This document shows positions 56,902 through 59,037 of a stretch of 64,000 nt of DNA, piece after piece. A model generated the notes under the pieces. That model had not been told where the DNA came from and searched no databases. It was given only the letters and a program-made list of their open reading frames with translations. This DNA comes from Waddliaceae bacterium. Its GTDB lineage: Bacteria; Chlamydiota; Chlamydiia; Chlamydiales; Waddliaceae. Positions within the stretch are counted from its first letter, which is position 1. Every line of letters starts with the position of its first letter. The DNA lies in contig CAVRUH010000001.1 in NCBI GenBank assembly GCA_963724325.1, positions 384,001 through 448,000 on the forward strand, given 5' to 3'. A program made the position numbers and the translations under genes.

Positions 56902-56991
56902 AAGTTAGCTAAGTTGGAAATTTAATGCGACAAATGAATAACATCTTGCGGAATCTCCAAAATAACAGGATATGCAAGATCGCAAGCGGCA

Positions 56992-58815
56992 CCCCATCAA
57001 TACTCAATTGGCAAAATTTGTTTTGAGAAAATGTTTGATAGAAGTACAATCGGTAAATATTCTTCTCGAAACAAGGCTCAGAACATTGTCAAAATGCATC
57101 AAAGTCCAAAAAATTGTACTCGAATATCACCCTCAGAGGAATCAAAGAGCAAAATTAATCAAGGGCTTAGCGATATTGCTCAACAGCACAATATCAATTC
57201 GGTCATCCATCAATCAGGAGCTCCATCATGAAGAAAGCCGCAATATATGCCAGAGTCTCCTCACAGAAGCAAAAAGAAGATGAAACGATCGAAAGTCAAG
57301 AATTGGTTCTTCGAGAATTTGGACTCAAAGAAGGATATCAAATTCCAGAAACGTGGCTTTTTCTTGATAACGGTATAAGTGGTCAAAGTCTTCAAAGACC
57401 TGCTTTAGATGATTTACGAGATTTGATACGAACAGAGTCTGTCGACGCGATTTTGATCTATGCACCAGATAGGTTAGCCAGAAATTATCCTCATCAACTT
57501 ATTTTGTTAGATGAATTTCGACGATGTGGAGTGAAGGTTCTTTTCATTAGAAATGTTCCTCAAGGTGACACTCCTGAAGCAATAATGTTTACTCATTTTC
57601 AGGGGATTTTTGCTGAATATGAAAGAGCATTAATATTAGATCGATCTCGTCGAGGTACTATTCATAAAGCAAAAAGCGGAGATCCAGCTATTCTTCCTAA
57701 GCTACCATATGGCTATCAGAGGATAAAAAATGAACGTCAAACGGTGATTGAAATCGTTGAAACAGACGCGAATGTTGTAAGAAAAATATTTTATTTATAT
57801 GTTCATGAGAGGCTTTCATTAAATGGAATTTGTCGAAGGTTGAGCGAGGTCCAAATTAAAAGCCCAAAAGGAAATTCCTATTGGTTTCCAGCAACCATCT
57901 TAGGGATATTAAAAAATAAGGCTTATATAGGCACTGCAGCCTATGGTAAATCAGAAAAGTATGAGGGTATAGATAAAATAAGGCATTATAAAGGCTTAAG
58001 ACGGCTGAAGCCAAAAAATCCACGAAAAAAAACTAATGAAGACTCTTGGTACGAGATAAATATTCCAATTATAATTAGTGAAAGTGATTTTGAAACAGCA
58101 CAGGAATATATAAATAAAAATAAAGAATTAGCCTTAAGAAATACCAAAGAACCTTCCTTGCTTCAAGGATTAATCACGTGCGGCGAATGTGGTTGTCAAT
58201 TTTATAAAAGAATGAGAAGATATAAGGGAATAAGTAAAAATTATTATCATTGTCGAAGCCATTCGGATAATAAAATACCAAAATGTTCTAATGGATATAT
58301 ACAGCAGGATGAGCTCGATGATTTGGTCTATAATGAAATAATTCAAATGCTTCAAAATCCATTTATGTTGCAGGAAGAGTTTAAAAGAAGAGAAAAGGAA
58401 AGCGGAAATATCGAGGAAATCGAGAGGCAGGAAATTTCGATGAGAAAAGAATTAGAAAAGCTTATAAAAGAACGAGAGCGACTTTTAGATGCATATCAAA
58501 GTGGTTTATTAGATTTAACTTCTCTAAGTCAAAGAGCCCAGGGGTTAGAAAAAAGAAGAGGCGAACTTGAGAACGAGAAAAAGGAACGATTAAATTTAAA
58601 ACTTATGAAAGAAATAGGATCCGGTTGGGAGCATGCTTTTGAAAGTATTTTAGAAAGAGTTAAAAAATCGGCTCCAGATTTGCCATTCAATGAGAAGCAA
58701 AAACTAGTGCGTTTAATAGTTGAAAAAATTATCATAACCAAAGGCGAGGTAAAAATCATGCATTGCATATCACCGAAAATGCTTTATGAAAATTGCCAAT
58801 TGAGTAGTGATGGGG
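56992..58815 (+). mobile_element. Minimal large-serine-recombinase (LSR) element with 23-bp terminal inverted repeats, inserted into a REP-like repeat at CA
   Basis: Left end CCCCATCAATACTCAATTGGCAA, right end TTGCCAATTGAGTAGTGATGGGG (1 mismatch). CA flanks both sides (56990-91, 58816-17). The joined flanks reproduce the intact repeat at ~58973-59037. Confidence 0.9.
57086..57283 (+). CDS. Small ORF overlapping the LSR start (possible accessory/directionality factor)
   Basis: TTG start in the frame of ORF 56972..57283: (M)SKCIKVQKIVLEYHPQRNQRAKLIKGLAILL... Start and reality uncertain. Confidence 0.4.
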   Translation: MSKCIKVQKIVLEYHPQRNQRAKLIKGLAILLNSTISIRSSINQELHHEESRNICQSLLTEAKRR

Positions 58816-58829
58816 CAGGATACGAATGA
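57228..58829 (+). CDS. Large serine recombinase (resolvase + recombinase + Zn-ribbon + coiled coil)
   Basis: YARVSS catalytic Ser, DNGISG, RPAL, DRLAR, PYGY, LLQGLITCGECG...YYHC...C; AGGAG RBS. Confidence 0.95.
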   Translation: MKKAAIYARVSSQKQKEDETIESQELVLREFGLKEGYQIPETWLFLDNGISGQSLQRPALDDLRDLIRTESVDAILIYAPDRLARNYPHQLILLDEFRRCGVKVLFIRNVPQGDTPEAIMFTHFQGIFAEYERALILDRSRRGTIHKAKSGDPAILPKLPYGYQRIKNERQTVIEIVETDANVVRKIFYLYVHERLSLNGICRRLSEVQIKSPKGNSYWFPATILGILKNKAYIGTAAYGKSEKYEGIDKIRHYKGLRRLKPKNPRKKTNEDSWYEINIPIIISESDFETAQEYINKNKELALRNTKEPSLLQGLITCGECGCQFYKRMRRYKGISKNYYHCRSHSDNKIPKCSNGYIQQDELDDLVYNEIIQMLQNPFMLQEEFKRREKESGNIEEIERQEISMRKELEKLIKERERLLDAYQSGLLDLTSLSQRAQGLEKRRGELENEKKERLNLKLMKEIGSGWEHAFESILERVKKSAPDLPFNEKQKLVRLIVEKIIITKGEVKIMHCISPKMLYENCQLSSDGAGYE

Positions 58830-58886
58830 TACATGTAACTTCTTACCCTGCTTTATAATAAAAAGTAATTGATATTATCTTCCTAT

Positions 58887-59037
58887 AATCCTTCATATCC
58901 TGCCGCTTGCGATCCTTCATATCCTGTTTTCCTTTTACAGGGAGGTTAACAAGGTATCAATCTCTTGTTATTTCTCCAAAATAACAGGATATGCAAGATC
59001 GCAAGCGGCAGGATACGAATGATACATGTAACTTCTT
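58887..59037. repeat. Cluster of REP-like repeats (one inverted, one direct); the direct copy equals the LSR empty target site
   Basis: ATCCTTCATATCCTGCCGCTTGCGATCCTTCATATCCTGTT and TCTCCAAAATAACAGGATATGCAAGATCGCAAGCGGCAGGATACGAATGATACATGTAACTTCTT. Confidence 0.9.

Follow-up and report, generated by a model that had tools for sequence, protein, structure and literature searches.

The window analysed here is a 64,000-nucleotide stretch of the genome of a Waddliaceae bacterium (assembly GCA_963724325.1, contig CAVRUH010000001.1, positions 384,001 to 448,000 of the forward strand). It contains a 1,826-bp element that encodes a large serine recombinase (LSR) and interrupts a short dispersed repeat of its host at a CA dinucleotide. 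Judging from sequence comparisons, this is very probably an insertion sequence (IS)-sized element that its LSR moves through a circular form. Coordinates are positions in the window unless a contig is named, and G000 denotes the genome that carries the studied copy.

The boundaries of the element can be read directly from its flanks. At the left junction, a repeat arm with a GCGG end is followed by the CA at 56990-56991 and then by CCCCATC, which starts at 56992; at the right junction, the terminal arm at 58793-58815 is followed by the CA at 58816-58817 and by GGATACG. When 1,826 bp are taken out and the flanks are joined, the product is identical over all 65 nt to an intact repeat at 58973-59037, which lies 155 bp downstream of the element. 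This bears out the junctions and the excision proposed in a preliminary description made from the letters of the window alone. The same description had predicted a near-perfectly palindromic circle junction centred on CA. We found that the two element arms, of 23 nt each, are 96% complementary, as predicted, but that the two junctions share four nucleotides, GGCA, and not CA alone; we chose CA as the core within these four nucleotides because it is the centre of the arm symmetry. Within its 1,826 bp the element holds the recombinase gene and one open reading frame (ORF) of 65 aa, with no mobilisation, conjugation, cargo or phage genes. The proposal of a minimal, cargo-free LSR element therefore holds for the recombinase, whose Pfam domains confirm the class, and has to be extended by the conserved 65-aa ORF. 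With these amendments, sequence comparison confirms that the element is real and upholds the first reading of it.

We also found that the studied copy is one of seven full copies in G000, which are 99.8-100% identical; there are no partial copies. All seven are inserted at the identical CA of one repeat, agree in orientation and have the same junctions, which is the outcome that the preliminary description had named as its check. The flanks diverge past the repeat at all seven sites, the element boundaries are exact, and four of the occupied sites have an intact counterpart elsewhere that matches over 59 nt or more. Five copies are identical and the other two have three substitutions in common, including H341Y and G445C, which shows that the spread is recent. 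Three copies lie inside 6 kb (G000:C1:24026-29732), and two of these stand head to head, one in each arm of a single repeat doublet, and carry the same three substitutions; from their arrangement, this clustering suggests local hopping. The G000 assembly is 84.6% complete and consists of 11 contigs of up to 1.1 Mb. The features of the element and its surroundings are collected in Table 1. In addition to the promoter candidate listed there, the element has two further ones (three found, against 1.0 +/- 0.8 expected).

Table 1. Features of the element and of the host repeat around it (window positions)
Feature	Position	Strand	Remarks
Left half (B arm) of interrupted host repeat, outer attL	56964..56989	+	near-identical in 7/7 copies
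CA core dinucleotide at attL	56990..56991	+	CA on both sides in 7/7 copies
Element including one CA, 1826 bp	56992..58817	+	7 copies; 35% GC against 40% for the genome
Left terminal arm, 23 nt, P' half of predicted attP	56992..57014	+	
Frame that would continue the recombinase after end joining, 79 codons	56992..57231	+	ends at TGA overlapping the recombinase ATG
Conserved [GD]xFxF[DE]-like stretch	~57004-57033	+	within the circle frame
Candidate sigma-70 promoter	57023..57050	+	10/12 consensus matches; by consensus match alone
Small conserved ORF, 65 aa	57086..57283	+	TTG start (inferred); AAGG 9 nt upstream; 56-nt overlap with recombinase start
Large serine recombinase, 533 aa at the studied site	57228..58829	+	last codons and stop from host repeat
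Right terminal arm, P half of predicted attP	58793..58815	+	within last recombinase codons
CA core dinucleotide at attR	58816..58817	+	CA on both sides in 7/7 copies
Right half (B' arm) of interrupted repeat	58818..58844	+	gives stop codon TGA, 58827-58829
Intact repeat copy, inverted partner of copy at 58973	58888..58928	-	
Intact repeat copy, reconstructed empty site, unoccupied attB	58973..59037	+	

The recombinase has the Resolvase, Recombinase and Zn_ribbon_recom domains in that order, all above the Pfam cut-offs. Among 35 homologs, residues Y7-R9-S11, D81-R82-L83-R85 and C318/C321/C342/C353 show no or almost no variation, and D81/R82/L83/R85 correspond to pocket residues of Bxb1 named in PMC12884075. 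The best fold matches of its structure model were the integrases of SPbeta, phiC31 and Bxb1. Long helices that qualify as a coiled coil occupy residues 395-464 of the model, and residues past ~519 are unstructured in the model of the short form. No NCBIfam cut-off was reached: the scores were 119 for XisF (cut-off 375), 103 for CcrB (900) and 82 for CcrC (900), which leaves the protein outside the Ccr recombinases of staphylococcal cassette chromosomes and XisF. A search for DUF4368 in the recombinase gave no match at E 0.001. A second, unrelated gene with a Recombinase domain lies at G000:C11:65385-65642 and is 25% identical to the studied recombinase over 102 aa.

The target is an intergenic unit of ~40 nt with about 200 copies, which form inverted doublets and tandem arrays. 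An ungapped scan of G000 with the 30-nt core, allowing up to six mismatches and counting interrupted copies, gave 213 matches in 80 clusters (~4.5e-5 of strand positions), compared with none in one mononucleotide shuffle. Of these matches, 209 fall outside ORFs of at least 150 aa, which on this crude map cover 83% of G000, and 37 of the 80 clusters lie between convergent ORFs. Eighty-five intact sites agree with the consensus of the seven used sites. A single unit folds no better than shuffled sequence (z +1.54 and +0.47), whereas an inverted pair folds well beyond it (z -11.2). The attB had been described as a multicopy intergenic palindromic repeat; this is correct for its copy number and intergenic position, and the palindrome is present only in inverted doublets. 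A match of the long hairpin to a plant microRNA in Rfam was below threshold (45 of 93 bits) and was rejected as chance. G000 also has a variant of the repeat that is 1 nt longer, in 24 exact copies; all seven insertions lie outside it.

The repeat belongs to the host, because a genome of the same genus (G096, 97% complete) has the repeat without the element; neither element nor recombinase was found there. Across 41 genomes searched, the repeat was found in four, with 175 matches in G000, 212 in G096, and 6 and 5 in the other two. Searches for the recombinase located it in 2 of 151 genomes from the order and in 4 of 401 genomes from the phylum (G000 included). The element, whose GC content is lower than that of the host genome (Table 1), is thus a patchy, recent visitor. 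The block from 56.9 to 63.3 kb, which includes the element, is wholly missing in G096, where the flanking GDPD and DUF2608 genes are adjacent, so that this genome offers no orthologous empty site for comparison.

The preliminary description had called the repeat REP-like, after the sequences named repetitive extragenic palindromes (REP). Repeats of such kind occur beside GxxExxY genes, which is the reason why we examined this family (PF13366). One GxxExxY gene in G000 (C1:338349-338684) is bracketed by doublets of the 1-nt-longer repeat variant, and one in G096 (C4:120501-120839) is flanked on both sides by inward-facing copies of the repeat; with their repeats, the two loci cover G000:C1:338084-338900 and G096:C4:120300-121100. 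Among 19 PF13366 loci examined, these two had the target repeat within 1.5 kb, and several others had different repeats. In a further genome (G011), four of five repeat matches adjoin PF13366 fragments. The same 1.9-Mb genome has 67 PF13366 matches, mostly identical C-terminal fragments, as if a piece of the gene had spread with its repeats. A GxxExxY nuclease may spread the repeat; a literature search for the pairing of the repeat with GxxExxY returned one unrelated match. A REP-associated tyrosine transposase (RAYT) was considered as the partner of the repeat and rejected, as the repeat was near none of ten Y1-transposase loci in five genomes (G000 being incomplete) and the repeat beside the G000 Y1 gene is another one. 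Thus the target resembles REP sequences and REPINs with their RAYTs in being a short intergenic unit of ~200 copies that forms inverted doublets and arrays, often between convergent genes, and differs from them in that its unit is no hairpin and in that it flanks a GxxExxY gene instead of a RAYT gene. REP-like therefore fits its behaviour and not a family membership. The Y1 gene of G000 (L001, C5:207307-207846 with its upstream region) encodes a 180-aa RAYT-like transposase next to tandem GGAG-headed palindromes; this second repeat family has an 18-nt core with 50 matches in G000.

Relatives of the recombinase are numerous. Of 8,000 scored proteins, 2,387 matched it at E <=1e-20, and many of the 120 matches listed (uncounted) sit on element-sized contigs. 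A scan of metagenomes found one locus, and viral contigs gave only relatives at 22-28% identity. Eight elements form a clade (support 98/98), of which six come from Chlamydiae-labelled genomes or genomes of the same order, one from a metagenome contig and one from a short Bacteroidetes-labelled contig. Clade members with both ends readable have 1.80-1.87 kb between inverted ends, and the right end lies inside the last recombinase codons. Seven copies of a 49%-identical relative were found in one genome (G422), measuring 1,843 bp from arm to arm in six and 1,834 bp in one. The six with a readable left flank have one hairpin arm in common, which has 10 matches in that genome, and this target is a hairpin repeat different from that of G000. 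The right flanks of these copies are common to four of the seven, different in two and cut by a contig end in one; at one locus (L064, G422:C29), the right flank has a second hairpin nested inside the first repeat. The flanks of relatives are also multicopy in G050 (23 matches) and G424 (46 matches). More distant relatives, at 33-38% identity, have an extra ribbon-helix-helix (RHH) gene in four cases. They split a gene annotated as reverse transcriptase/maturase in three of nine plasmid loci and adjoin one on one side in two more.

The position of the right end has a consequence for the protein. Within the element, the recombinase reading frame meets no stop codon, and its tail and stop are read from the flank. 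Because the att site lies within the recombinase gene, the C terminus depends on the insertion site: the proteins of the seven copies range from 533 to 550 aa, with tails that differ with the flank. By eye and without a count, most of 121 homologs likewise end in short unrelated tails right after a CQL-like motif. Joining the ends of the element would instead yield a protein of 609 aa whose reading frame closes at its own start codon. We found that relatives in Chlamydiota, Actinomycetota, Alphaproteobacteria and one cyanobacterium encode a [GD]xFxF[DE]-like stretch at the left end. A run of 19 codons was open in the circle frame of all 18 elements, compared with 4 of 36 other frames, in a test that leans towards the claim and is partly circular, since the frame was chosen by the motif and the search required its second F. 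In the core of the motif, variation is greater at third codon positions than at the first two. When ends were joined by geometry only, using symmetric arms and an identical 2-bp core alone, the best-ranked join brought the motif into frame in 11 of 16 elements (p 0.004 against an expectation of one in three, with kin that are not independent). The shared part of the tail is limited to its first 12-15 residues, and the open length ranges from 20 to 114 codons across the 18 elements. An ORF that wraps the whole circle, as in the studied element and the G422 relative, was seen only in these two and was rejected as a rule of the family. On this comparative evidence, we consider it moderately probable that the circle tail is translated and functional; that it acts as a directionality switch is a doubtful proposition.

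The small ORF upstream of the recombinase is also conserved. Equivalent ORFs were read in 12 relatives, and a profile search found 171 representatives at E <=0.001, with the consensus LEYxFDRLxxxKLxxAYxILVP (from 72 of the 150 matches listed and nine loci). Applied to the regions upstream of 30 recombinase loci, the profile gave 19 strong matches, nine of which had been in the alignment, 2 weak ones and 9 without a match; among nine plasmid loci outside the alignment, six were strong, two weak and one negative. The structure model predicts a helix with an unstructured start (predicted template modelling score, pTM, 0.36). We infer that the product is a candidate recombination directionality factor (RDF) or a regulator, and the chance that it is an RDF falls slightly short of even. 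Two related candidates were not supported. A separate gene with an ATG start at 57031-57231 is the circle frame itself and had one weak Pfam match below the cut-off, and a resemblance by eye of the circle tail (NFxFD) to a strand of the small ORF (EYxFD), which would suggest competition for one site, received a probability of 0.7% in a profile comparison.

These observations can be assembled into a mechanism. Serine integrases exchange strands across a 2-bp stagger, and an asymmetric core fixes the orientation of the product. By this chemistry, recombination of attL with attR by the enzyme would release a 1,826-bp circle carrying the palindromic attP, which could then recombine with any intact repeat copy as attB, the asymmetric CA setting the orientation. 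The copy number could rise because excision from one replicated chromosome arm can precede insertion elsewhere. More tentatively, direction may be set by the small ORF as an RDF, by the swap of tails, or by both: in the chromosome, the enzyme would have a short, site-dependent tail, and in the circle the conserved FxF[DE] tail. Two published observations bear on this step, namely that the RDF of SPbeta contacts its integrase at the zinc domain and at the coiled-coil hinge (PMC11722253), and that C-terminal extensions are suspected of blocking the RDF site in integrases without a predicted RDF (PMC12286644). A more far-reaching version, which we regard as unlikely, is that IS-sized serine-integrase elements form a family across phyla, live as parasites on other multicopy selfish DNA and control direction by rewriting their own enzyme. 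Its targets would be GxxExxY-linked repeats, hairpin repeats and the reverse-transcriptase genes of group II introns; the short chromosomal recombinase would excise together with the small ORF protein, and the long form made from the circle, through its FxF[DE] tail, would exclude that protein and commit the enzyme to integration.

Several results do not sit easily with movement through a circle or with the roles proposed for tail and small ORF. No circle or empty-site junction of the studied element is present in the G000 assembly, nor was one found at the joints in the contigs of 4 of 16 sequencing runs, a weak test because these contigs are short and of low depth; such contigs drop rare forms and so cannot prove the absence of circles. 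The 2-bp core differs between the ends in two of the seven G422 copies, and a strict integrase mechanism does not predict unequal cores. The flanks of other relatives are not dispersed, with one match in G204, four on one contig in G287 and one in G425, all fragmented assemblies. In serine integrases, the zinc-domain motif is expected 5 bp nearer the centre in attB than in attP (PMC11722253); this shift is weakly visible on the B arm (6 of 12), and B' has no such peak. The geometry-only join missed the motif frame in three of 16 elements, tied in one and ranked it second in one. The motif region also overlaps the promoter candidate at 57023-57050, so that constraint at the DNA level may contribute to the conservation of the tail. 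No family in Pfam, NCBIfam or Atlas and no fold matched the small ORF, and its last third overlaps the recombinase frame and is hence constrained by the overlap.

One alternative keeps the LSR and dispenses with the control of direction. The enzyme could be a bidirectional transposase like TnpX or TndX, with the small ORF regulating transcription or translation and the swap of tails arising as a by-product of an att site within a gene. This is a real contender, although we give it the lesser share of our belief. The Tn4451 recombinase is reported to perform both reactions without an RDF (PMC5704250). The small ORF resembles no family, and the separate RHH gene of distant relatives makes regulation part of the family kit. 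However, the small ORF persists next to that RHH gene in L084, L085, L127 and L129, the circle frame is open in all 18 elements (with the circularity noted above), and the recombinase yielded no DUF4368.

Other explanations dispense with the LSR or with the copies themselves. The element could have spread between repeat clusters through homologous recombination, gene conversion or segmental duplication, as the cluster of three copies on C1, the inverted neighbours with the same substitutions and the ability of the repeat to build tandem arrays might suggest. We consider this improbable, given that the flanks diverge beyond the repeat at all seven exactly bounded sites, that four sites have an intact twin and that G422 shows this pattern again at another target. 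It is less probable still that an assembler placed one element at several repeat copies. Repeats can mislead assemblers, G000 is incomplete, and the whole stretch is spanned by the contigs of none of the runs examined. Against this stand two copy variants whose bases also occur in contigs from the runs (58181 C>T in X1; 58560 G>T in X2 and X3), single run contigs that cross the left junction (X3 and X5) and, by a few bases, the right junction (X1 and X2), the length of the G000 contigs and the same anatomy in independent genomes. Movement by the LSR through a circle accordingly remains our preferred reading.

The element can be compared with several known systems. The IS607 family is also IS-sized and has a serine catalytic domain; the studied protein scored 37 bits against the NCBIfam IS607 cut-off of 110, through the catalytic domain only, and its 533 aa have that domain first, followed by the recombinase and zinc-ribbon domains. 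The phage serine integrases with RDFs (SPbeta, phiC31, Bxb1 and A118) share its domain order, its fold, a symmetric attP of ~48 bp and a 2-bp core, whereas the studied element has no phage genes, a multicopy target and an att site in the 3' end of the integrase gene, so that the C terminus changes on recombination. IS1397 is an IS3-family element with no serine recombinase or attP/attB chemistry. Like it, IS621 and IS1594 are IS-sized and go into one fixed point within an intergenic repeat that is dispersed, and these two belong to the IS110 family (PMC3184786), which, unlike the studied element, does not use a serine recombinase or attP/attB chemistry.

REP13E12 of Mycobacterium tuberculosis is a long, low-copy repeat. 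Its resident phiRv1 resembles the studied element in having a serine integrase with an attB inside a repeated sequence of the host (PMC9317374), but is a phage-like element with multiple genes and an RDF of its own (PMC12286644), in contrast to an IS-sized element with a 40-nt target of ~200 copies. In Tn4451/Tn4453 (TnpX) and Tn5397 (TndX), an LSR-excised circle reinserts through identical 2-bp sequences (PMC5704250, PMC11222575), as the predicted circle would here. Those transposons carry resistance and mobilisation or conjugation genes, and Tn5397 measures 21 kb (PMC11222575), whereas the studied element has 1.8 kb, two ORFs and one precise target in a dispersed repeat; the similarity that we found was confined to the catalytic domain (2mhc, E 9e-4). 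The multi-targeting LSRs described by Durrant et al. (2022), such as Cp36, Pc01 and Enc9, have relaxed specificity, and 63% of them have DUF4368 (PMC10083194). The studied element differs from that clade in having a strict, repeated target (7/7) and no DUF4368 (PMC10083194, PMC13137831). In an exact-word test, the family-typical peptides QGIFAEYER, AEYERA, AEYERT, RLLDAYQ and RLIDAYQ had no match in the cluster-representative table of Durrant et al., where generic terms matched unrelated rows. A full-text literature search, covering few subscription papers, returned no description of an IS-sized LSR element aimed at dispersed repeats, nor of an LSR whose C terminus is rewritten by recombination.

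The block at 56900-63300 also holds an AAA_14/DUF4143 ATPase gene (59117-60328), an IS1634 element and a 253-aa ORF with no Pfam family. The IS1634 transposase gene (60671-62188, minus strand) belongs to a 1,606-bp unit with five copies at 100% identity, one of them interrupted, and a 72% relative. IS1634 stands between two direct-repeat copies of at least 300 nt (60082-60654 and from 62294 onward) that duplicate the ends of both neighbouring genes; this repeat is far longer than an ordinary target duplication. Elsewhere in the window, a 2,279-aa ORF spans 45286-52125.

The element thus represents a compact serine integrase with natural attP, attB, attL and attR sites that can be predicted from seven events, and its target is strict, yet naturally multicopy and intergenic. 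Its relatives have switched to unrelated targets, including other repeats and intron genes, and provide a natural series on the change of specificity. With two genes, the element makes the control of direction without a known RDF directly testable. Shin et al. (2025) report that no RDF could be predicted for 21 of 64 integrases (PMC12286644), where C-terminal extensions fell under suspicion; in the studied element, recombination itself would add and remove an extension of this kind.

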